From Alphaproteobacteria bacterium (GTDB taxonomy: Bacteria > Pseudomonadota > Alphaproteobacteria > CAAHEQ01 > UBA3637): a DNA stretch of 64,000 nt. The notes beneath the pieces were generated by a model, which worked only from the letters and a program-made list of their open reading frames with translations, searched no databases and had not been told where the DNA came from. Both the position numbers and the translations under genes were made by a program. This document shows positions 3,351 through 56,237 of the stretch, piece by piece. The number at the start of each line of letters is the position of its first letter. Position 1 is the stretch's first letter. Where the stretch lies: positions 443 to 64,442 of the forward strand of contig JBGUXS010000078.1 in the NCBI GenBank assembly GCA_045118155.1, read 5' to 3'.

Positions 3351-5522
3351 TTGGGCGCCTCTGACGCGATGTACACCGAACGTAAAAAATATACGTACTA
3401 TGTGGCAGCTATCGTAGTACTGGCTCTTTTTGTATCTTGGATAATGCTGTTAATTACAATTCCTTTACAAGCTTTTATCCGTCAAGGGTTAGATATTGAA
3501 GCTTGGAATTACAGTGTTTCCTTTTGGACACATGCTTGGCATCCAAAAGTCATTTTTCAAGTCCTCAATAGTTGGTTTGATTCCCTAAAAACGTTAAAAA
3601 ATCCCCATTGGACTTTATATTTACCCTTTTTATCCTTTTTTATTGGCTTTATCGTTTTAGTGATAGGGCTAAAAAAGAATCCCTTTGAATACACACCAAA
3701 TATTTTTGGGAATGGACGTTTAGCCACTTATGCTGATGTCAAAAAAATGAAATTATTTACTGGGTTCTGCATCGTTTTGGGACGTTTTAAAGGCAAGTTA
3801 TTAAAAATGCCAGAAACCTTAGCGGCCTTAGTTGTTGCGCCACCGGGGACTGGTAAAACCGCTGGGGTGGTGATTCCCACCATTTTTGAATCCCCAGGAT
3901 TGAGTATTATTGTAAACGACCCTAAACCAGAATTATGTTATACCACAACCGGATATCGGGCACAACAAGGGCCTGTGTTCGTTATTAACTGGGGGGCCGA
4001 TGATGAACCAGAAAAAGGGATTTTCTTCCCTAGTTGGAATCCACTTTCTGCTTCATGCTTACCAGCACCAGGTCCCGCCAGAGATATGTACATAGACTCT
4101 ATGGTGGCTATTTTGGTAGAAGTTAATGAAAAAGATCCTCACTGGGGGAAAACTGGGCGAAATGCTATGTCTGGTTTTTTGAACTTTATCGCCAGTAAAT
4201 GTGAACGGGCACTTGCTAACGATTACTTTACTTCACGTTTAATGGACGATTTATTTGATGATGAAGACGCGGCCGTTTTAGAAACATACTATGCGGATAT
4301 GAACGATCCTGATACAGGGTCTGCTTTACAGGCATTAAAAAATGGGTCTATGACACGGGAATCTTACGTCCCTATCGGTACATGGGCGGGGCTACCTTCT
4401 GTTTGGCAAGGAAAAGAACCTTGTATTGCTATGATTTTGGACTGGCTGACGGAAATGCAAATGAAAATCAATGCCGATATTAAACGCCGTATGGATGAAG
4501 GGGATCAAATGGCGGCCATGGCAGACCCCATGCGGGATCTATTGGAAAGTGCCATCAGTGAAGCAGCCCGCTATGGCTATGCCAGACGTTCTGTCACAGA
4601 ACTCAATCAATTATCCGCCACACCGGATAAGGAACGGGGGTCTATTTTATCCACGGCCCTTTCTGGGATCAGTATTTTTAAAAACTCGGCAGTGCGTTCT
4701 AGAACTAAGTTCAGTGACATTACTTTCCGTGATTTACGTGGGATGCGTGATCCTATTACAGGGGAACAAAAACCTATTTCGGTTTATCTATCCGTTAACC
4801 AGGTAGATGCCCAAGCCTTAAATGTCATTACTGGGATTTTTGTTGAATTGATGAGCAGTTTCTTAATCGCGAACCCCCCAAATTTTGTTGGGGCAGGCGG
4901 GAAAAAGGCGGGACCATTTCCTGTTTTATTTGTGCTTGACGAGTTTCCACAAATGCCAAAATTGGATGCTGTGAAAAACGGGCCTGCCGTAGGGCGGGGA
5001 CAGAAAGTTTCTTATTTGCTCATTGGGCAGGATCTTGGACAGATTTCTGGTAAATACGGGAAAGATGATTTGGAAACAATCATTACAACAACAGCCGCTA
5101 AAGTCATTCTTTCTCAAAACAACGAACAAACCGCTGAACGTTTTACAAAAATGATTGGGACTAAAACGATTCAAGTAACAAGTTCTAGCCGAACTGAAGG
5201 GATTTCCAACCAAAATAACCCCTTTGCGGCAAACGTAAGCCGTTCCTACCAAAGCTCAAACGTGGTCCAAGTATCTGATATGATGAGCTTAGATATGCTT
5301 AAACAATACGTTTTATTCCAAGGATATCTAAACCATCCTATCTTAGCGGATGCCCCTCGTTATTACTTAGATAAAGTCATGCAAAAGAAAGCGGCCATTC
5401 CCCCTTCCCCATTTGTTCCGTATTGGATTGTAGCGCAACGGGAAGATACCGATTTAGAAACATTAAAAGCTTTGATGCAAGAGGAATTAGCAGATTTGGA
5501 TATTATCATAGAGGATGAATAA
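3351..5522 (+). CDS. virD4: type IV secretion coupling protein (VirD4/TraG/DotL family ATPase)
   Basis: Two N-terminal TM helices. Walker A VVAPPGTGKTAGVVIPT. Walker B VLFVLDEFPQMPKLD. NDPKPEL motif. Acidic C-terminal tail. TTG start at 3351; alternative ATG at 3369. Confidence 0.8.
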   Translation: MGASDAMYTERKKYTYYVAAIVVLALFVSWIMLLITIPLQAFIRQGLDIEAWNYSVSFWTHAWHPKVIFQVLNSWFDSLKTLKNPHWTLYLPFLSFFIGFIVLVIGLKKNPFEYTPNIFGNGRLATYADVKKMKLFTGFCIVLGRFKGKLLKMPETLAALVVAPPGTGKTAGVVIPTIFESPGLSIIVNDPKPELCYTTTGYRAQQGPVFVINWGADDEPEKGIFFPSWNPLSASCLPAPGPARDMYIDSMVAILVEVNEKDPHWGKTGRNAMSGFLNFIASKCERALANDYFTSRLMDDLFDDEDAAVLETYYADMNDPDTGSALQALKNGSMTRESYVPIGTWAGLPSVWQGKEPCIAMILDWLTEMQMKINADIKRRMDEGDQMAAMADPMRDLLESAISEAARYGYARRSVTELNQLSATPDKERGSILSTALSGISIFKNSAVRSRTKFSDITFRDLRGMRDPITGEQKPISVYLSVNQVDAQALNVITGIFVELMSSFLIANPPNFVGAGGKKAGPFPVLFVLDEFPQMPKLDAVKNGPAVGRGQKVSYLLIGQDLGQISGKYGKDDLETIITTTAAKVILSQNNEQTAERFTKMIGTKTIQVTSSSRTEGISNQNNPFAANVSRSYQSSNVVQVSDMMSLDMLKQYVLFQGYLNHPILADAPRYYLDKVMQKKAAIPPSPFVPYWIVAQREDTDLETLKALMQEELADLDIIIEDE

Positions 5523-27459: not shown

Positions 27460-27758
27460 TGCCACCATTTTTAAGCCCTGATGAAGATTCGTGTCTTTTA
27501 CACATTTTATTGGTTCCTAATGCTAAAGAAAATAAGATTTATGGTCTTTTTAATGAACGATTAAAACTTTATATTTCTGCCCCAGCTGTGGACGGAAAAG
27601 CGAATAAAGCTTTAATTAAATACCTGGCTGATCTCTTTAACCTAAAAAAAAATCAGATTTCCTTGATACAAGGGGAAAGATCCCATCAAAAAACAGTACG
27701 ACTAGATGCCCCTATTGACCACATCTGTACTTGTTTAAGTCAACATATTTCCGTGTAA
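27456..27758 (+). CDS. DUF167 (YggU) family protein
   Basis: LKLYISAPAVDGKANKALIKYLADLF... Confidence 0.7.
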   Translation: MMPPFLSPDEDSCLLHILLVPNAKENKIYGLFNERLKLYISAPAVDGKANKALIKYLADLFNLKKNQISLIQGERSHQKTVRLDAPIDHICTCLSQHISV

Positions 27759-28805
27759 AATACGTGTAATCTCGCTTCCTTGCATCAAAGAAAAACCTAA
27801 GGCTTGGGCTTGTTGTATTTCTTGAGGGGTTTGAATATCAAACAAGATAATTTTTTCTTTAGGATAATTCAAAGTAGCAGCCCATTTCATCTGTTGACTA
27901 TTAATCTTTAGGTAATGCATCGGGATTTTATCCCATGCTAAATAGGATATTTCCTCCGGAATGCGTAATAAAAAGAGGGATTGTTGATAACAAGGTATTT
28001 TTTGAATACTTTGCCATAAATCCCGTTCCCAAAGAAAATCTGATAAACTTATTTCATAAGAAATACCTTGATGTTGATACAATTGGTGCATTTCCTGATA
28101 AACGGGTTGGGTTAAAAGATAAGGACTCGCAGAAAAAACTCCTCCTTGTGTTTTGGGCAATTCCTTTTTTAAAATTTTTGTATACAGCGCATTCTTAAAG
28201 GCCCTTTTCAAATATGTATCAGAATCCAATATCACCTTTGGAAATAGAACTTGACGGACATCAATATCTTTACAAAAAACACTGGTAAATACAGGAACCA
28301 TCTCGGTTAAATCATGAACCTGACAAATGCATTGATGCCGTGTTAAATGTGAAACATCCGCTGTTTTTAGCTCTGATAAAATATGTGTGAGAGTTGGGGT
28401 ATCCAAGGGCAATGAAGGAATTTTTTGAAGCACTTTTAAATCAGAAAAATCTGCTGTTGGGGTTAGCTCTTGATGATTAATTTTATGGATCAAAGCATTA
28501 AAATCTGTGATTAAATTAAAAAATGATAATTTATGTTCTTGGAAAAAGGATTTTTCCAGCCCCTTTAATTTCAAGGAAAGCAACATCATATCCTGTAATT
28601 TATTATGGGCAAAAAAGGCAACGCTATCCCCTTCGCTTAAAAAGAACAATTTCGTTTGATATGTCTGTTCAAAAGAACTCAAAAAATGCAAAAGAACCTT
28701 TTTTTTCTCATCTTCTTTAGGTAAAGGAATATAAAGAGCATGCCCTTTAAATGTTCTTTTTTCAAGATATTTGAGATAGTCAAAAACACTATTATACCGC
28801 ATCAT
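27735..28805 (-). CDS. hypothetical protein with a degenerate EAL-like C-terminal domain
   Basis: C-terminal ...YLKINSQQM...KIILFDIQTPQEIQQAQALGFSLMQG mirrors the EAL end (KID...EGVE...GCD..QG) but lacks the catalytic residues. Confidence 0.5.
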   Translation of the reverse strand: MMRYNSVFDYLKYLEKRTFKGHALYIPLPKEDEKKKVLLHFLSSFEQTYQTKLFFLSEGDSVAFFAHNKLQDMMLLSLKLKGLEKSFFQEHKLSFFNLITDFNALIHKINHQELTPTADFSDLKVLQKIPSLPLDTPTLTHILSELKTADVSHLTRHQCICQVHDLTEMVPVFTSVFCKDIDVRQVLFPKVILDSDTYLKRAFKNALYTKILKKELPKTQGGVFSASPYLLTQPVYQEMHQLYQHQGISYEISLSDFLWERDLWQSIQKIPCYQQSLFLLRIPEEISYLAWDKIPMHYLKINSQQMKWAATLNYPKEKIILFDIQTPQEIQQAQALGFSLMQGSEITRILHGNMLT

Positions 28806-29874
28806 ATCCCCTTAAATGTTGCACACACACGCATTGTGATGCTTGATGCGGGATCGCCCCCATTTGCATACACGTTTGTAAAGCACAATCTCCCCCATAT
28901 GGACACGTTTTTTTTCGAGAAGCCGCATGAATCAAATCAATAAAATCACCTTGAAAAAAGGTATATGGGGAAGACAGAATTTGAGTTAATTTTTCTTGCG
29001 TATCCACTCCTGTTACAAAAACAGGAACATGATTGATTGATTGTGTTAAACAAACTTCTACGGGAAGAAGTAAAAAATCAGCTTCTAATAAATCAAAACG
29101 ATAAAAGGCCGTTTCTGCAGTAATGCCCCCAATACCTAACCGATACTGTTTTCCTGGACGAGTTAGGGCTTCCTTATACAGATTTTTATTTAACAAGACT
29201 TCTGCAATATCTAAAATAATCCAAACTGGGTCATTATTTTCAATCCAAGCACTTTCCAACGTTCCTTGCACCATCAAAGGCAATGTCGTTTGTTTAAACA
29301 GCTCTTTATTTGGGTGTTGCAATAATTGTTTCTGTATTTTCTGAACTAACCACATTGGAAGCTGATCCATATTGTTTTTTAAGGTCCATGTATATCCCCA
29401 CAGAGAGTTGCTCCCCTTTTGATAAATTACCCGCCTAAACCAACTATTTTTTTCGGGAATATCTTTTAAAAAAGCCTCATAATCAACCTCTTGATTCGTT
29501 TGCTTTTTAGCTATCTGAATCAGGGACAAAACCCCCATCAAATCCTGTGGTAAATGGAACAAGCGTACATTTTCTTCTTTTTTTCCTGTTTGAATTTGAA
29601 AAAATGTTTGAATTTGGCGCATCACATCCACAACTTGATGTTCATCAAGATCAACCCCTATTAATAAACGATCTTGTTGTTCAAATGTAAAAAGCCGACA
29701 ATATTCATACGCTAATAACGGTTCTAATAAATGTTCTATGACGTGCATCAACCTTTCGGCCCCTGGCAGACCTAATAATTGACTTGTCCCTATCCAAAGG
29801 ACAACCGACGGTGTTTCTAAAGCAGCGACACGCTTTATTGTTTCTAAGGCCAGTTGTTCTTGTGTCTCATACAT
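28792..29874 (-). CDS. hypothetical protein with a degenerate EAL-like domain and a Cys-rich C-terminal tail
   Basis: YRLGIGGITAETAFYRFDLLEADFLLLPVEV...VPVFVTGVDTQEKL...FQGDF parallels the EAL DDFGTG...KIDRSF...EGVET...QGY layout. Tail TCPYGGDCALQTCMQMG...QCVCVQH. Confidence 0.5.
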   Translation of the reverse strand: MYETQEQLALETIKRVAALETPSVVLWIGTSQLLGLPGAERLMHVIEHLLEPLLAYEYCRLFTFEQQDRLLIGVDLDEHQVVDVMRQIQTFFQIQTGKKEENVRLFHLPQDLMGVLSLIQIAKKQTNQEVDYEAFLKDIPEKNSWFRRVIYQKGSNSLWGYTWTLKNNMDQLPMWLVQKIQKQLLQHPNKELFKQTTLPLMVQGTLESAWIENNDPVWIILDIAEVLLNKNLYKEALTRPGKQYRLGIGGITAETAFYRFDLLEADFLLLPVEVCLTQSINHVPVFVTGVDTQEKLTQILSSPYTFFQGDFIDLIHAASRKKTCPYGGDCALQTCMQMGAIPHQASQCVCVQHLRGYDAV

Positions 29875-29980
29875 TTTTTCTTCCTAAACTTGAGCTTTCA
29901 GTATAAAGGATATCCTTGAAAAAACAACTTGTTTTTTTGGGAAAAATCTTGCATACTCCTTTCAATAGGAGGAATCACAC

Positions 29981-31951
29981 ATGCATTACTTAACAGGGGA
30001 AGAAGTTTCTGTCACATCCTTAAAAACAATAGCCCAAGAATTTGGTTTTATGTTGTGGCCGCACCCCGATGATCCTTTCTTATTGCATAAAACACCCTAT
30101 CAAAGTTTTCCAGAAATGCTTTCTGTCCTTACAGATCATATTACAGAAAAAAAACTTAATTCCCTCTTCACTTTCCCTGTTTCTTTCATCTTAGATGCGA
30201 ATGCACAATCTGAATCCTTACATAACTTCTTTAAATATCAAGCCCGTAACCAATTGGATAAAACCATCGGTGTCTTGCTAACTTGCCCCGTTATTTACGC
30301 CTGTGATGTTGCGCAAATTTTTACCGAAGCCTTACATCAACGATTACACTTTCCTAGCACACGTTACAGTAATATTCATATGGCTATTCATGAAGCGCTC
30401 GTCAATGGTTTAGTGCATGGAAATCTAAAACTACCTAGTTCTTTACGGCAATCAGCTCGTGATTTCGTTGATTACGCCCGCATTGTTAATGAACGCTTAT
30501 TAGACCCTGCCTATGCTAATAAATCCATCAGTATTTGGGCTACTTGGAATACCTCTAGATTGGAAATTAAGATTCGGGACGAAGGGGCTGGATATACGGT
30601 TTTACCCCCCCATAAAAAACATGTGGCAGAAAAACGTTCTGGACGGGGGCTTTATCTAATTGCCGGAACTGCTGATTCCTGCACAATTGATGATTTTGGG
30701 CGAGAAATCACATTATCTTTTATTCTAAATAATCTAAACAACGAACAAGATATCGGGGTTTCTGAAAATGCGGCTTTACTGCATGATCCTGTAACCGATT
30801 TTTCGGATTGTCGTATTTTAATCATTGAAGATAACCCCAGTAATCAAATCTTGGTTTCACAACTTTTAAACGTGGTTGGAATTGGTCATATTGAAACAGC
30901 TCAAGATGGGGTTGAAGGCCTTGAAAAAGCATTCAGTATGAAACCAGACTTAGTCATTTTGGACATCACTATGCCCCGAATGAATGGATATGAAGTACTT
31001 CACCAACTCAGAACAAATCAAGATACGGCCTCTATCCCGGTTTTAATTCAAACGGCTTCTGATACACGGGCAGCACGGGATAAAACTTTTAGTGCGGGGG
31101 CAACAGACTTTATCACAAAGCCATTAAATCCTTTGGAATTTTTCTCTCGGATACGGGTACACTTAGAAAATAGATTACTTGTAAAACATCTTGAAACGAA
31201 ACTCGCTCAAATCAATGAAGAACTAGAACTTGCCCAAAAAATGCAAGAAAGTTTATTACCCCCCACGGAAGCACTTCAAGATATCAGCCAACGTTATCAT
31301 CTAGATATTTCTTATACGTTCTTACCTTCTTCCCATTTAGGGGGGGATTTCTGGCAAATTTTTCCATTGGCTAAAGATAAGGTCGCTTTTTATATTTGCG
31401 ATTTTTCGGGACATGGGGTAAGTGCTGCCATGAATACGTTCCGATTACACACCTTAATCGGGCAAATGGATATGACGGCATTGAAAAAGCCTTCCGAATT
31501 TCTTTTTATGCTTAATAATTCTTTGGTCAACTTGTTGCCCAGGGGACAATTTGCTACTTTCTTCTTTGGTATTTTAAACAAGCGACAAGGAACATTAACA
31601 TATGCTGGGGCCAGTTCGCCCTTCCCTATTTTGGTTAAGGACAACAAACCCTCTTTCTTAGATACTTCCGGGATGCCTTTGGGAATTTTAAAGGACGTTA
31701 CTTATAAAGATAAAAAGGTACCATTTTCCAAAGAAATGGGCATTTTACTATACAGTGACTCTTTCACTGAACAACAAAATAAAGAAGGAAATCGCCTTGA
31801 TTATGATGGTTTTATGAAAATGACTCAGACGTGTTTCTCAGAAAAAACATCTCAACAAGTCATTGCCCAAATCATGCAAAAATTTCATGAATTTTCTGAC
31901 ACCCCTAGTACCGATGATATTACGGCTGTCTATTTGAAAGGCCTCTTATGA
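29981..31951 (+). CDS. multidomain signalling protein: RsbW-like HATPase_c_2 kinase domain, receiver (REC) domain and PP2C/SpoIIE phosphatase
   Basis: N-box IHEALVNGLVHGN, G-boxes IRDEGAGY and GRGLYLIAG. REC domain ILIIEDNP...DLVILDITMP...ITKP. PP2C domain GGDFW...ICDFSGHGVSAAM...DDITAV. Confidence 0.75.
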   Translation: MHYLTGEEVSVTSLKTIAQEFGFMLWPHPDDPFLLHKTPYQSFPEMLSVLTDHITEKKLNSLFTFPVSFILDANAQSESLHNFFKYQARNQLDKTIGVLLTCPVIYACDVAQIFTEALHQRLHFPSTRYSNIHMAIHEALVNGLVHGNLKLPSSLRQSARDFVDYARIVNERLLDPAYANKSISIWATWNTSRLEIKIRDEGAGYTVLPPHKKHVAEKRSGRGLYLIAGTADSCTIDDFGREITLSFILNNLNNEQDIGVSENAALLHDPVTDFSDCRILIIEDNPSNQILVSQLLNVVGIGHIETAQDGVEGLEKAFSMKPDLVILDITMPRMNGYEVLHQLRTNQDTASIPVLIQTASDTRAARDKTFSAGATDFITKPLNPLEFFSRIRVHLENRLLVKHLETKLAQINEELELAQKMQESLLPPTEALQDISQRYHLDISYTFLPSSHLGGDFWQIFPLAKDKVAFYICDFSGHGVSAAMNTFRLHTLIGQMDMTALKKPSEFLFMLNNSLVNLLPRGQFATFFFGILNKRQGTLTYAGASSPFPILVKDNKPSFLDTSGMPLGILKDVTYKDKKVPFSKEMGILLYSDSFTEQQNKEGNRLDYDGFMKMTQTCFSEKTSQQVIAQIMQKFHEFSDTPSTDDITAVYLKGLL

Positions 31952-32655
31952 TTCGGGTGTATATAGAGGCTCTGGACCCTAAAAAACCAACACCTCTTTC
32001 TGTGGATCACTATCATTATTTGGCCCACGTTATGCGTTTAAAAGCGGGGGACAGTTTTTTAGCGTTTAATCAACTTCAAGGGGAATTTTTAGCTGTATTT
32101 CAACCTAAAAACAAAAAAGAAGGTCATCTTTTACTACAAAAACAAACGCGTTTACCAGAACAACCTCGTCCGCCTGTAACACTTTATATCGCCCCTATCC
32201 GAAAAGAAAAAATGGAACTTGTGTTACAAAAGGCAACAGAAATTGGCGTAGAGATCATCCAACCTATTTTAACGAAACATACATGCCATCGGCCTTTATC
32301 AAAAGAACGGGCGGATATTATTATAAAAGAAGCGGTAGAACAATCTGAACGGCTGACATTACCTAATTGGCTTCCCCCTATATCTTTGGAAGAACTTCTT
32401 ATTAAACGTTCAACAGATATCCCTCTTTTTTACCTATCCGAACGAGGGGAAACGCAACATATTTCTTTGCCCGCCCCTCCTATAAGCTTTCTTATCGGAC
32501 CAGAAGGGGGATTTTCTAAGGAAGAAATTACCTTATTAGGTCAACAAAAAAACGCCCAAGCTATCAACCTAGGCGCTTTTATTCTACGGGCGGAAACAGC
32601 CGCTATTGCTATGCTAGCGACCTACCGCTTTCATAAACTGTTTTATACAGCTTGA
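31948..32655 (+). CDS. rsmE: 16S rRNA (uracil1498-N3)-methyltransferase
   Basis: MIRVYIE...HYLAHVMRLKAGDSFLAFNQLQGEF... with a C-terminal SPOUT fold. Confidence 0.8.
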   Translation: MIRVYIEALDPKKPTPLSVDHYHYLAHVMRLKAGDSFLAFNQLQGEFLAVFQPKNKKEGHLLLQKQTRLPEQPRPPVTLYIAPIRKEKMELVLQKATEIGVEIIQPILTKHTCHRPLSKERADIIIKEAVEQSERLTLPNWLPPISLEELLIKRSTDIPLFYLSERGETQHISLPAPPISFLIGPEGGFSKEEITLLGQQKNAQAINLGAFILRAETAAIAMLATYRFHKLFYTA

Positions 32656-32831
32656 CGTAGTTTTTCCTCACAGCAACACTTTTCTTCAACAAACCATATA
32701 CGATCTTCAAATTCGGATTTTTTCCCCTTATTGAATTGGCTAACAGGACGAAAATACCCCATAACCCGTGTCCAACATTCCACCGCTTGACGTTCATTAG
32801 AAAATTTTTCTAAAATTTGGTTATCTGTCAT
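32643..32831 (-). CDS. stand-alone glycyl-radical domain (NrdD C-terminal-like) small protein, 62 aa
   Basis: RVMGYFRPVSQFNKGKKSEFEDRIWF matches the class III RNR glycyl-radical motif (RVCGY...N.GK..E..DR). ATGA overlap with the nrdD stop. Confidence 0.6.
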   Translation of the reverse strand: MTDNQILEKFSNERQAVECWTRVMGYFRPVSQFNKGKKSEFEDRIWFVEEKCCCEEKLRQAV

Positions 32832-34897
32832 GCTTTGTTCTCCTTTTCTGCAAGTTCTTGACGTTTTTTTTCAATGAGTTCCGCATCACACTTTGGGCAG
32901 AACTTGTGTTCCCCACTAATATACCCATGCTTGGGGCAAATAGAATAGACAGGGGTAATAGAAACATAAGGAAGATGATAATTTTCTAATACCCGTCTAA
33001 TAAGTGATTTACAAACACTTGCTGAAGAAATCCGTTCATTCATATACAGGTGCAAAACCGTTCCCCCTGTATACTGTGTTTGCAATTCATCTTGATAATC
33101 CAACGCTTTAAACGGATCATCTGTGAAGTTCTGTGGTAATTGAGAAGAGTTTGTATAATAGGGGGCCTCTTTCTTTCCTGCTTGAATAATACCAGGATAG
33201 CGTTTTTGATCTTCTTTGGCAAAACGATATGTTGTCCCTTCAGCTGGCGTTGCTTCCAAATTGTACATATTTCCTGTTTCTGCTTGGAAATCCAGCATTT
33301 TTTCCCGAATATGTGTTAAAAATTCTTTAGCCATCGCCCGCCCTTTTTCCGAAGCAATGTATTCTTCATCATTAGTAAAGTTCCGAATCATTTCATTAAT
33401 ACCATTAACCCCAATCGTGGAAAAATGATTTCGGAATGTTCCTAAATATCGCCGTGTATAAGGATACAACCCCCGATCCATGTGCATTGAAATGGTTTTA
33501 CGTTTAATTTCTAAGGAAGTCTTCGCTAATTCCAGTAATTCATCCAAACGTTTATACAATTCCTCTTTCTTCCCCTTATACAGGTATCCCAAACGGGCAC
33601 AGTTAATTGTAACAACCCCAATAGACCCCGTTTGTTCTGCTGAACCAAATAAACCACCACCTCGTTTTTTCAATTCCGTCAAATCCAACCGTAACCGACA
33701 ACACATTGAACGAATATCTGAAGGCTTCATATCAGAACTAACATAGTTTGAAAAATAGGGTAATCCATATTTAGCCGTCATTTCAAATAACAATTCCGTA
33801 TTTTCAGAATCCCATGGGAATTCATTTGTAATATTGTATGTCGGGATAGGGAAAGTAAACGGCCGCCCTTTGGCATCCCCACTTCCCATAACTTCTAAAT
33901 AAGCCCTATTAATCATATCCATTTCTTTTTGCAGATCACCATAAACAAAATCTTGTTCCACCCCCCCAATGATAGGGTGCCGATTCTTCAAATCTTCAGG
34001 GCAATTCCAATCAAAAGTTAAGTTCGTAAAGGGTGTCTGTGTCCCCCAACGCGATGGTACATTCAAGTTAAAGATGAAGGATTGCATCGCTTGTTTTACT
34101 TCTTCATAAGGTAATTTTTCAATTCGTATAAATGGTGCTAAGTACGTATCCACAGAAGAAAACGCCTGTGCCCCAGCCCATTCATTCTGCAAAGTCCCCA
34201 AGAAATTAATCATCTGGCTAAACGCAGAAACAAGGTGTTTTGGCGGTTTAGATTCTGTCTTATTGGGAACCCCATTAAAACCTTCTTCTAATAAAACCCT
34301 TAAGGACCACCCTGCACAATACCCACTCAACATATCCAAATCATGAATATGATAATCCCCATTTCGGTGAGCTTCCCCAATTTCTGGCGTATACACGTGG
34401 CTCAACCAATAATTGGCCACCACCTTTCCTGCCGTATTTAAAATCAATCCCCCTAAGGAATATCCTTGATTAGCATTTGCGTTCACCCGCCAATCTGACC
34501 GATCTAAATATTCATTAATAGAAGCCACCGCATCAATAACCGTTTTCTTATCATTCCGCATTTTTCCGCGTTGTTCACGGTACACGATATAAGCCCGGGC
34601 AGTTTTGTAATAATTAGAGGAAATTAAAACCTGTTCAACCACATCTTGAATTTGCTCAATATTAGGATAAACCCCGAAAGCAAACCGATGCTTTAAAACC
34701 TTAATAACTTGTCTTGTTAATAACCACGCTTCATCTTGACCGAATTCAGCCGTTGCTTCCCCAGCTTTCAAAATAGCAACCATAATTTTAGTCACATCAA
34801 ACGGATACTGTTGCCCATCCCGTTTAATTACATAGCTCAACGGACTAATATCAATGGTTACATTTAGCGGCTGGGCTCCTGTCAAAACTTGCAACAT
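32828..34897 (-). CDS. nrdD: anaerobic (class III) ribonucleoside-triphosphate reductase, large catalytic part without a glycyl-radical domain
   Basis: N-terminal ATP-cone (VIKRDGQQYPFDVTKI...AYIVYREQR). SMCCRLRLD region. C-terminal Zn ribbon CPKHG...CPKC. The ORF ends before any RVxGY motif. Confidence 0.75.
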   Translation of the reverse strand: MLQVLTGAQPLNVTIDISPLSYVIKRDGQQYPFDVTKIMVAILKAGEATAEFGQDEAWLLTRQVIKVLKHRFAFGVYPNIEQIQDVVEQVLISSNYYKTARAYIVYREQRGKMRNDKKTVIDAVASINEYLDRSDWRVNANANQGYSLGGLILNTAGKVVANYWLSHVYTPEIGEAHRNGDYHIHDLDMLSGYCAGWSLRVLLEEGFNGVPNKTESKPPKHLVSAFSQMINFLGTLQNEWAGAQAFSSVDTYLAPFIRIEKLPYEEVKQAMQSFIFNLNVPSRWGTQTPFTNLTFDWNCPEDLKNRHPIIGGVEQDFVYGDLQKEMDMINRAYLEVMGSGDAKGRPFTFPIPTYNITNEFPWDSENTELLFEMTAKYGLPYFSNYVSSDMKPSDIRSMCCRLRLDLTELKKRGGGLFGSAEQTGSIGVVTINCARLGYLYKGKKEELYKRLDELLELAKTSLEIKRKTISMHMDRGLYPYTRRYLGTFRNHFSTIGVNGINEMIRNFTNDEEYIASEKGRAMAKEFLTHIREKMLDFQAETGNMYNLEATPAEGTTYRFAKEDQKRYPGIIQAGKKEAPYYTNSSQLPQNFTDDPFKALDYQDELQTQYTGGTVLHLYMNERISSASVCKSLIRRVLENYHLPYVSITPVYSICPKHGYISGEHKFCPKCDAELIEKKRQELAEKENKA

Positions 34898-53441: not shown

Positions 53442-53517
53442 GTTTTTTTCATAAAAGCATTTTCTGCCTTTACTTTTCATCTCTTTTTGATTATGCTTGT
53501 TTCTACAAGGGGGTAAT

Positions 53518-53805
53518 ATGCGGGAACCTATTTTAAAAGCGGTCAGTATGCCGGCGCGTATTTTATGGGCGCCGTCGGTTCCGGCGTTGTTAAACATGGT
53601 TTGTCAATTACCTTTCATGTTGTTCTATGCGGGACAAGGGGGCAACCCTTTGCTATTCATGGGAACTATCATCGGGGTTCATGCCTTAATTGCTCTTTAT
53701 GCCGCGAAAGAACCTCATTTATCTAATATGTTCAAAGCCCAAGGTCCTTTCTTTAAGAAAAGTTCACAAATGTATACCTCATCAGGAAGAAAATACGCCC
53801 CATGA
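53518..53805 (+). CDS. virB3: type IV secretion system protein VirB3 (TrbD-like)
   Basis: Two TM helices. ILKAVSMPARILWAPSVPALLNMV...LLFMGTIIGVHALIALYAAKEPHL matches the VirB3 family. RBS AAGGGGG. ATGA overlap with virB4. Confidence 0.75.
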   Translation: MREPILKAVSMPARILWAPSVPALLNMVCQLPFMLFYAGQGGNPLLFMGTIIGVHALIALYAAKEPHLSNMFKAQGPFFKKSSQMYTSSGRKYAP

Positions 53806-56237
53806 ATCAAACAGATGTTTTCGCCCTTATTTTACAAAATGCTTCCTCTACGGGGTTACTTATTGCCTTGTTAGGAGTATTAGCACTTGTTTTTGTCATG
53901 GTTGTATTTGTGACCTCCTTAGGAAATATGTTACTTCCCAAACCAAAAGAAACCCTTGTTTCTGATTTTCTTCCTTTTTCAAGGCTAGACCCAGATGGTG
54001 CCACCATTTACATGCGTAATGGTACTTTGGCTCGTGTTTTTGAATTAACAGGAACGGATACCACTTTAGCAAGTGATATTGAACGTAAAGCCTTAATGGA
54101 AAAACGGCAACAATGGATTGATTCACTAAGTGAATTAGAAATTATTTGCAGGGTTATTACGATTCGTGAAAAAATTCCTTTAGCCGAAGAAACACTACAT
54201 CCAGATAATCCTTTGCTCAATAAAGTGTCAGAACTTTGGTTGAACAGTTTACACCGTATTTTCAGAAACAAACATTACCTAATTCTTTCCGTTAATGATC
54301 GTAAGGATGCCATTAATGATTTAATTCAGGCAACAAATGCGACTCTTTCTATTTTAGATGTTTATCATCCTATTCTTATTTCTGAAAAAACCCCAGATAA
54401 ACATCAAGACAAAAGCCCCTTTTGGGTTTTTTCACAACTTGTCAGCCCCGTATCAAACCCCAAACCCATTGTAGGCTTTGAAAAAGGGGAAGAACTTAAT
54501 TCCTTTTTAACGTCTGACTATATCCACTTCACAAAAGATGAAGGGATTATCCGTTTCTTTTCTGGGGATAGGGAAAAATTAGCCATTTGTATCGGTATTC
54601 GTAAGCCTGGGGATTTCATGGATGAACAAATGGTTGCCCGTATTTTAGGAATTGATTGTGAAGTTGTTATTACACACAATATCCATGCTATTCCAAAAGC
54701 AAAAGGAAACCTGTTAATGATTCAACAACGCCGTATGGCTTACTTAACAAGTTTTTCTGAAAGTGTACGTTCCCAATATAATACCGCCATGCAATTAATG
54801 GATCCTTCTGATATTAATTCACAAACCCTTAATGAATATTCTATGTCTATTATGGTTTATGGGGAATCTAAGGAAGAACTTGTTTTTGGACAACAGGAAG
54901 TTGAAAAAATATGCCGACTTTACGGGGTGACCCCTGTGCGAGAAGGTTGGATTACTCAAGCTGTTTTCTTTTCTCAAATTCCCTCTTATGAAGTATATCC
55001 ACGTACATACTTGTATTTATCGCGGGTAGTGGCGTGTTCCATTTGCATGGATAAAACAACTGAAGGCCGGCAAAAATCTGATTGGGGGCCTGTGCCTATT
55101 TCTTACTTCCGGACTATTACGGGGACCCCTTACGCTTTCCAATTTCATGTAACAGAAGAACCCTATGCTGTGGCACATACAGCCCTTATTGGTCCAACGG
55201 GACAAGGGAAAACAACCTTATTTTCATTTTTAGCAGGCCAATCTTCCCGTATTCCAGATTTACGGACTTATTTCTTTGACCGTAACAATGGGGCCAAAGT
55301 TTTTGCTTTATTACAAGGGGCTCCTTATGTGCGGTTTGATGGGGGGGACAATGCTGTTGCCTTAAATCCTTTCTTTATGCCAGATTCCCCTGAAAACAGG
55401 GCATTTTTACGATCTTGGTTACGCTCTATTACTGGCTGTACAGATGCTTTTTCCGAAGAAGAAATTGCCCGAGCCGTTACAACAGCTTATGACTATTTAA
55501 AACCAGAAGAACGTCTTTTGAAGAACTTGTATAAAAGCTCTTTTTCCTTAAACGGAGATATGCGCCGTGAACTAAAACGTTGGGTCAGTGATGATCAATA
55601 TGGTCGGATCTTTAATGCCGAAGAAGATAAATTAGATATTGATAACCGCTATACTGGTTTTGATTTTACGCATATTTTCCAAGATGGGACGTTGGCTCCT
55701 GCTGTCATCAGTTATATCATGTACCGCATTCATGAATTAGCTAGTTTAAAAGGGACCCCCTCGTTAGTGATGATTGATGAAACGGCCCCTATGTTAGAAC
55801 ATCCTATGTTCCGAGACAATTTCATTGTAGGCCTTCGGGAAGGACGAAAGAAACGACAAGCATTCTTATGTGCTTTCCAGCAACCTCGCTTTTTAGATGA
55901 AAACGGTTTAGGGGATGTGATTCGTGGCCAATGTCAAACCATTATTTTCTTTAGAAATTTACAGGCAACCCCCGCGGATTATGAATCTTGGAATTTAACC
56001 CCAAGTGAACTAAACTTTATTCTAGGAAAAGAATTTATTGATCATAAATACGCCATCCTTGTCAAACGGCCCGCTGTTAATGAATCTGTTATCTTAGATA
56101 TTAATTTGGGGGGATTAGGTCCCTACTTAAAAATTTATTCTTCTGGGAATAAAAATGTGGCCTTAGTTGAACGTCTTAGTCATGAACTAAAATATGCTAA
56201 AGATATCCTACAACAATATCTACAGTTATCTGATTAG
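53802..56237 (+). CDS. virB4: type IV secretion system ATPase VirB4 (TrbE-like), 811 aa
   Basis: Walker A LIGPTGQGKTT. Walker B SLVMIDETAPML. N-terminal TM helix. CagE/TrbE/VirB4 architecture. Confidence 0.88.
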   Translation: MNQTDVFALILQNASSTGLLIALLGVLALVFVMVVFVTSLGNMLLPKPKETLVSDFLPFSRLDPDGATIYMRNGTLARVFELTGTDTTLASDIERKALMEKRQQWIDSLSELEIICRVITIREKIPLAEETLHPDNPLLNKVSELWLNSLHRIFRNKHYLILSVNDRKDAINDLIQATNATLSILDVYHPILISEKTPDKHQDKSPFWVFSQLVSPVSNPKPIVGFEKGEELNSFLTSDYIHFTKDEGIIRFFSGDREKLAICIGIRKPGDFMDEQMVARILGIDCEVVITHNIHAIPKAKGNLLMIQQRRMAYLTSFSESVRSQYNTAMQLMDPSDINSQTLNEYSMSIMVYGESKEELVFGQQEVEKICRLYGVTPVREGWITQAVFFSQIPSYEVYPRTYLYLSRVVACSICMDKTTEGRQKSDWGPVPISYFRTITGTPYAFQFHVTEEPYAVAHTALIGPTGQGKTTLFSFLAGQSSRIPDLRTYFFDRNNGAKVFALLQGAPYVRFDGGDNAVALNPFFMPDSPENRAFLRSWLRSITGCTDAFSEEEIARAVTTAYDYLKPEERLLKNLYKSSFSLNGDMRRELKRWVSDDQYGRIFNAEEDKLDIDNRYTGFDFTHIFQDGTLAPAVISYIMYRIHELASLKGTPSLVMIDETAPMLEHPMFRDNFIVGLREGRKKRQAFLCAFQQPRFLDENGLGDVIRGQCQTIIFFRNLQATPADYESWNLTPSELNFILGKEFIDHKYAILVKRPAVNESVILDINLGGLGPYLKIYSSGNKNVALVERLSHELKYAKDILQQYLQLSD

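Follow-up and report, generated by a model that had tools for sequence, protein, structure and literature searches.

Locus and gene product

The 64,000-nucleotide stretch considered here (the window, from contig JBGUXS010000078.1 of the alphaproteobacterial assembly GCA_045118155.1) is a housekeeping region of the chromosome, in which a gene directly upstream of rsmE encodes a 656-residue regulator that joins an RsbW-type serine kinase, a receiver (REC) and a PP2C-type serine phosphatase (table 1). The open reading frame (ORF) is as described in an earlier note, made from the sequence alone, in which the product was regarded as an unusual three-domain protein and suggested to be a self-contained phospho-switch.

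The rsmE gene lies directly 3' of the regulator gene in all 16 ortholog loci, with stop and start codons that mostly overlap, and the two genes are probably co-transcribed. The 5' neighbour differs among these loci, being a nitronate-monooxygenase-like gene, other genes or, as in the window, a pair of overlapping ORFs divergent from the regulator gene (U1 and U2, 356 and 360 amino acids (aa)). Weak homologs of U1/U2 (25-29% identity, shorter) are found in the same position at two ortholog loci only (L001 and L002) and are missing from the other 14; no similarity was found for either ORF in Pfam, NCBIfam or the PDB. The 360-aa ORF of the pair has a Cys-rich C-terminus. A promoter and terminator scan of the regulator locus gave fewer matches than were obtained in shuffled controls.

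Table 1. Features of the regulator gene, its neighbours and other genes of the window (window positions)
Feature	Position	Strand	Description	Basis
Regulator gene	29981..31951	+	656 aa; N-terminal module, kinase, REC, PP2C; stop codon within the interval	ORF, Pfam, homologs
Shine-Dalgarno sequence	29967..29972	+	AGGAGG, strong, 8 nucleotides before the ATG	read from the sequence
N-terminal alpha/beta module	29981..30265	+	aa 1-95; beta-alpha-beta-alpha-beta-alpha; no Pfam family; D72 invariant in the clade	
RsbW/SpoIIAB-type serine kinase (GHKL)	30266..30730	+	aa 96-250; N-box E138/N142, G1 D200-x-G202-x-G204, G2 G221-x-G223	PF13581
Insertion between N-box and G1-box	30425-30526	+	aa 149-182; helical	
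Kinase-REC linker	30731..30805	+	aa 251-275; variable, disordered	pLDDT <50 (251-270); 21% mean pairwise identity
Receiver	30806..31165	+	aa 276-395; acidic pocket E283-D284, phospho-acceptor D328, T358, K380	PF00072
REC-PP2C connector	31166..31300	+	aa 396-440; long, helical, continuing from the last receiver helix	model helices 384-424, 429-439
PP2C/SpoIIE serine phosphatase	31301..31948	+	aa 441-656; metal-binding D456, D474, D593, D645-D646	PF07228, Foldseek
rsmE	31948..32655	+	16S rRNA methyltransferase; start overlaps the regulator stop codon by 4 nucleotides	PF04452, PF20260
U1/U2	27735-28805, 28792-29874	-	overlapping ORFs	
nrdD, split	32643-34897	-	anaerobic ribonucleotide reductase; body 32828-34897, small ORF 32643-32831	
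Type IV secretion genes, scattered	3351-5522, 53497-53805, 53802-56237	+		Pfam

Domains, catalytic residues and predicted structure

The three domain assignments of the earlier note were all recovered above the Pfam gathering cut-offs: HATPase_c_2 (PF13581) matches residues 110-246 with 43.9 bits (cut-off, 27.4), Response_reg (PF00072) residues 279-391 with 91.6 bits (cut-off, 30.2) and SpoIIE/PP2C (PF07228) residues 466-652 with 124.8 bits (cut-off, 25). Residue conservation was evaluated in an alignment of 39 homologs, which extends down to 28% identity. In the kinase, E138, N142, H146, N148, G202 and G223 are invariant, with D200, G204 and G221 conserved in at least 90% of the sequences; in the receiver, D328 is invariant, and D284, T358 and K380 are conserved to at least 90%; in the phosphatase D456, D474, G477-H478-G479, D593 and D645-D646 are all invariant. 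The catalytic motifs that had been quoted from the single sequence are, thus, real.

A helical insertion between the N-box and the G1-box of the kinase is strongly conserved, with the pattern SxLRQSARDFxEYARLLxERLNDPxYAQK. The insertion is also present in PDB entry 9qih ('SenB', an unannotated entry), which is the best solved match of the kinase region (expectation value (E) 1e-4). SenB was considered as a functional clue and dropped, the literature under this name being concerned with unrelated proteins.

An AlphaFold model of the regulator, built from the 39-homolog alignment, has a mean predicted local distance difference test (pLDDT) score of 85.7, with disorder confined to the ATP-lid loop (residues 208-219) and to the kinase-REC linker (251-270). 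With Foldseek, the half of the model formed by REC, connecting helix and PP2C matches Pseudomonas aeruginosa RssB (3f7a, E 7e-26); further matches of the PP2C domain are to SiaA, to SpoIIE and, in Rv1364c (3ke6), to the RsbU domain. By sequence, too, the nearest solved relative is P. aeruginosa RssB (3eq2, E 2e-33), and Pseudomonas RssB is the top match in NCBIfam, although with scores well below the cut-offs of the two RssB models (NF045505, 139 bits versus 700; NF007969, 82.7 versus 329 bits) and with the REC-PP2C half alone aligning. No SypE model was present among the 25 best NCBIfam families.

The N-terminal module

The 95 residues that precede the kinase were modelled also in isolation, yielding a confident beta-alpha-beta-alpha-beta-alpha fold (pLDDT, 89.4; predicted template modelling score (pTM), 0.83). 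D72, at the end of strand beta-3, is invariant in the clade of the window protein, and a conserved Ser, S79, is found where the next helix begins. In profile-profile comparisons the module resembles neither STAS domains (probability, 0.25%) nor receivers (0.17%). It matches, instead, the N-terminal extensions of standalone kinases encoded in the operons described below (HHalign probability, 94.5%; E 8e-8). On these values the module is an ancestral trait of the kinase subfamily, inherited from the standalone kinases, rather than a hidden STAS domain fused to the protein. This uncharacterized 95-residue module marks a large subfamily of RsbW-like kinases.

Distribution of the family

A word-indexed protein search returned 714 homologs, of which the best 120 all have lengths of 560-680 aa, share the three Pfam domains with the window protein and show a full-length identity to it of 48-68%; the names given among them are 'SpoIIE family protein phosphatase' and 'response regulator', and the named homologs come from alphaproteobacterial metagenome-assembled genomes (MAGs), with one Pseudomonadota MAG. 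Six independent metagenome contigs, with a length of 234 kb in one case, carry the identical protein with identical neighbours. An exhaustive search with residues 1-273 gave 1,985 cluster representatives at E <=1e-3, most of them matching the kinase core; the best 150 are mostly standalone kinases of 160-270 aa, with about a dozen fused forms of 550-665 aa. The regulator is one of a large conserved family in uncultured Alphaproteobacteria, in which more than 100 clusters of full-length homologs fall in this 48-68% range.

From operon to fusion

A scan of species-representative genomes provided 80 loci, with approximately 20 kb visible for each relative, in which ORFs were annotated with four segments of the query and with a STAS profile. 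The latter was seeded with SpoIIAA and RsbV sequences and rebuilt from 48 matches in the loci; Pfam confirmed its match in L018 and, on examples, the identity of the STAS, CheB, hybrid-kinase and HATPase_c_2 proteins of the relatives.

In the distant relatives (L017-L082, 66 loci), which include Azospirillum, Niveispirillum, Bradyrhizobium, Rhodopseudomonas, Magnetovibrio, Kiloniella and Sneathiella, the functions typically reside on separate and often overlapping genes, in the order STAS (about 100 aa), kinase (210-280 aa) and REC-PP2C (about 400 aa). The STAS gene was detected in 54 of these 66 loci, nearly always directly upstream and on the same strand, and REC-PP2C is duplicated in some of them, with two tandem copies in several Azospirillum loci. 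In three divergent relatives (L018, from a 'Rickettsiales' MAG, L090 and L091) kinase and REC-PP2C are fused and the STAS gene is directly upstream; in two other fused forms (L089 and L092) no STAS gene is adjacent. The clade of the window protein, consisting of the window itself, L001-L002 and 14 species representatives (L003-L016, 47-56% identity), has the fused gene with the full N-terminal module and no STAS gene in the flanks. Homology of the module to its counterpart in the standalone operon kinases ties the fused gene to the operon lineage. The fused gene most likely came from an ancestral operon of Alphaproteobacteria, with the order STAS, kinase, REC-PP2C, in which the kinase gene merged with that for REC-PP2C.

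The operon-type loci carry a CheB methylesterase gene on the upstream side, at a distance of approximately 2 kb, and hybrid histidine kinases with PAS domains on the downstream side. From this setting, the STAS-kinase-REC-PP2C operons found in cultured Rhodospirillales and Rhizobiales seem to serve as the output of chemosensory-type clusters. L091 contains a methyl-accepting chemotaxis protein (MCP) gene besides the upstream STAS gene. Genes for CheB, MCP and PAS hybrid histidine kinase/Hpt proteins were observed near the STAS-kinase-REC-PP2C genes in L018, L046, L054, L071 and L091. In the literature on these alphaproteobacterial operons no experimental study was found.

Among the other fused forms, that of L092 (6001-7785, GCA_025998655.1) is a 594-aa protein in which HATPase_c_2 and SpoIIE were detected with no receiver detected between them; its REC may have degenerated. 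In this locus rsmE is approximately 1.5 kb away, on the opposite strand.

Missing STAS gene and constraint on the enzyme domains

The earlier observation that neither a STAS nor a sigma-factor gene lies near the regulator was borne out for the entire window. The STAS profile gave no match among the ORFs of at least 60 aa over the 64 kb, and neither a STAS nor a sigma-factor gene was found in Pfam sweeps of the window ORFs or in the precomputed annotation of the identical contig (about 20-42 kb). In the STAS-less clade, the mean pairwise identity is 65% for the kinase, 72% for REC and 53% for PP2C, as compared with 32% for the N-terminal module and 21% for the kinase-REC linker, with no variation at any of the ATP-binding residues. 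Insofar as this can be judged from sequence, the kinase is not decaying in this clade and both opposing activities are being kept by selection. The higher conservation of the kinase with respect to PP2C, taken with the invariant ATP-binding residues, argues that a substrate still exists.

Comparison with known systems

SypE of Vibrio fischeri has the same order of domains, kinase, REC and PP2C, and has been genetically dissected: the N-terminal kinase, in an N52-dependent manner, inactivates the STAS protein SypA by phosphorylating it, and biofilm formation is affected in the opposite sense by the C-terminal PP2C domain (PMC3610818). The window protein resembles it in the three architectural features, namely a kinase with the conserved Asn, a central REC and a C-terminal PP2C, and the alphaproteobacterial fused relatives L018, L090 and L091 share with it also the linked STAS gene. 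On the other hand, the Asn is N142 in the window protein and N52 in SypE, so that an N-terminal module of about 90-95 residues is absent from SypE by its numbering, and the window gene lies outside a polysaccharide locus; the comparison is one of architecture as described.

HsbR of P. aeruginosa and CrsR of Shewanella oneidensis, in which the order is REC-PP2C-kinase, act in the unphosphorylated state as kinases on a STAS antagonist (HsbA and CrsA, respectively) and in the phosphorylated state as phosphatases (PMC6482189). They share with the window protein the presence of REC, PP2C and an RsbW-type kinase/anti-sigma domain in one polypeptide. They differ in that their genes are adjacent to a STAS gene and their domains are permuted with respect to the kinase-REC-PP2C order found here, where no STAS gene is adjacent. 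Their input is linked to phosphorelays or chemosensory systems (PMC9855816), which recalls the Che context of the operon-type relatives of the window protein. A further difference is that their kinase domains bind RpoS, which is not expected in Alphaproteobacteria.

The STAS, kinase, REC-PP2C operons of Azospirillum, Niveispirillum, Bradyrhizobium and Magnetovibrio are direct homologs. Their REC-PP2C proteins are 35-42% identical to the corresponding part of the window protein, and their kinases belong to the same subfamily, both the N-terminal module and the insertion between the N-box and the G1-box being common to the two. In the operons, however, three functions are carried by three genes beside CheB and hybrid kinases, whereas the window has a single gene for kinase and REC-PP2C, to which no STAS, Che or histidine kinase gene is linked.

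Rv1364c of Mycobacterium tuberculosis (PDB 3ke6) is similar in the fusion of an RsbU-type PP2C to an RsbW-type kinase. It has a sensory N-terminal domain in place of the receiver, and a STAS domain of its own. No STAS domain is present in the window polypeptide, which is thus not a protein of this all-in-one type. Similarly, with respect to the classical RsbW/SpoIIAB module, the PF13581 domain is present, but no STAS or sigma-factor gene accompanies it in the 64 kb.

By taking these systems into account, the architecture can no longer be considered unusual: SypE has it in the same order, HsbR and CrsR have the same domains permuted, Rv1364c fuses phosphatase and kinase, and the family is large. 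The earlier note had itself envisaged that the architecture might prove common and already characterized in the lineage. Common and characterized it is, but the characterization concerns Gammaproteobacteria and not the alphaproteobacterial lineage of the window. Modest novelty lies in the series from operon to fusion in Alphaproteobacteria, in the loss of linkage to STAS and upstream kinase genes throughout the clade, and in the N-terminal module.

Proposed function and alternative explanations

By analogy with SypE, HsbR and CrsR, and because of the operon ancestry, the regulator is probably a REC-controlled kinase/phosphatase toggle of the SypE type, the target of which would be a STAS-type partner with an unlinked gene. 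The receiver, through its phospho-acceptor D328, would set whether the N-terminal RsbW-type kinase or the C-terminal PP2C phosphatase dominates. Both enzymes would act on one serine of a small partner protein, the phosphorylation state of which would relay the signal by partner switching; the partner would most probably be a STAS-domain antagonist, its gene lying elsewhere in the genome. In the clade of the window protein the fused gene would have left its STAS gene and the upstream kinases, and settled before rsmE amid housekeeping genes. We infer the toggle logic by analogy, and likewise what the substrate is and from where D328 receives its phosphoryl group.

Several observations weigh against such a function. 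No STAS gene was found in the 16 ortholog loci, the flanks of which extend mostly 8-10 kb upstream (0.8 kb in L009), and the linked substrate gene expected from the comparison with SypE is missing from the 64 kb of the window. Neither a histidine kinase nor an Hpt or Che gene is linked to the regulator in the window according to the Pfam sweeps and the contig annotation. Furthermore, the SypE fusion and that of the window protein may be of independent origin, because the numbering of SypE implies no N-terminal module, and the pTM of the whole-protein model, 0.49, leaves the arrangement of the domains and their contacts undefined.

The unlinked genes could also be taken to indicate that the switch has been re-targeted, so that, the ancestral STAS partner having been lost in the clade, the kinase and phosphatase pair now acts on a non-STAS protein. 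This possibility is rather unlikely. It would account for the lack of a STAS gene at any of the 17 clade loci, as opposed to its presence in 54 of the 66 distant relatives, for the relocation of the gene to a housekeeping context with universal rsmE linkage, and for the strong constraint under which kinase and PP2C still are; the divergent U1/U2 pair of the window and of L001/L002 could, in principle, encode the new partner. However, U1/U2 are missing from the other 14 ortholog loci and are thereby ruled out as the general missing partner, no data point to an alternative substrate, and an unlinked STAS gene does not equal a STAS gene absent from the genome. The sypA and sypE genes, too, are not known to be adjacent within the syp locus. 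That the STAS partner has gone from the clade genomes entirely, with the fused protein now directed at itself or at a new substrate that is not a STAS protein, appears distinctly unlikely; if it had been lost, the N-terminal module or the tight linkage with rsmE might hint at the new target.

An anti-sigma or sequestration role, in which the GHKL domain would chiefly hold a sigma factor or another regulator and catalysis would be secondary, is improbable: no sigma-factor gene is linked to the regulator in the Pfam sweeps of the window, and the invariance of the ATP-binding and catalytic residues argues for retained catalysis. RpoS is generally not known from Alphaproteobacteria. In favour of such a role, RsbW-type domains are classically anti-sigma factors, and in CrsR and HsbR it is the kinase domain that directly binds RpoS (PMC6482189), but SypE, with the same domain order as the window protein, phosphorylates SypA without a known sigma factor (PMC3610818).

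The self-contained switch proposed in the earlier note, with kinase and phosphatase acting in cis on their own polypeptide, for instance on the N-terminal module, is very improbable. It would agree with clade loci devoid of STAS genes, and the module is a compact alpha/beta domain in which D72 and S79 loosely recall the phospho-serine site of STAS proteins. The module and the acidic residue at position 72 are, however, found also in relatives that have a STAS gene, so that the module does not support a cis-acting switch. The proposal is further disfavoured by the fact that the characterized examples all act on a separate STAS protein, that a STAS gene accompanies 54 of the 66 distant relatives, and that the module, besides containing no built-in STAS domain, is present in standalone kinases with a STAS gene of their own. 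Finally, a proteolytic adaptor of the RssB type, with a non-catalytic REC-PP2C half that delivers a target to a protease, is hardly credible despite RssB being the best NCBIfam match and, with the same REC-helix-PP2C layout, the closest solved structure (3eq2, 3f7a), since the 139 bits are far under the cut-off of 700, RssB lacks a kinase domain and the invariance of all PP2C metal-binding aspartates points to a real phosphatase.

The kinase-receiver-phosphatase design of SypE is extended here from Vibrio to a large group of uncultured Alphaproteobacteria that are probably gut- or host-associated. The series leading from separate genes to a fusion with STAS upstream, and to an unlinked fusion, offers a natural experiment on what drives the fusion of opposing enzymes with their regulator. 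If the clade were truly without STAS proteins, a partner-switching enzyme pair would be working on a different substrate; otherwise, the regulator would be an ordinary, if neat, signalling protein.

Other genes in the window

The nrdD gene is split. Its body encodes 689 aa and ends right after the zinc-ribbon cysteines, and the glycyl-radical motif TRVMGYFRP is on a separate 62-aa ORF, the ATG of which overlaps the nrdD stop codon (ATGA). The same split is found in two divergent relatives (L012, 16-1111; L014, 2-1073) and, for this reason, is not a sequencing error. Type IV secretion genes are dispersed among the housekeeping genes of the window, encoding a VirD4/TraG-like coupling protein and a VirB4/CagE-like ATPase, the latter preceded by a 102-aa ORF without a Pfam match. 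Their presence is compatible with a host-associated alphaproteobacterium.

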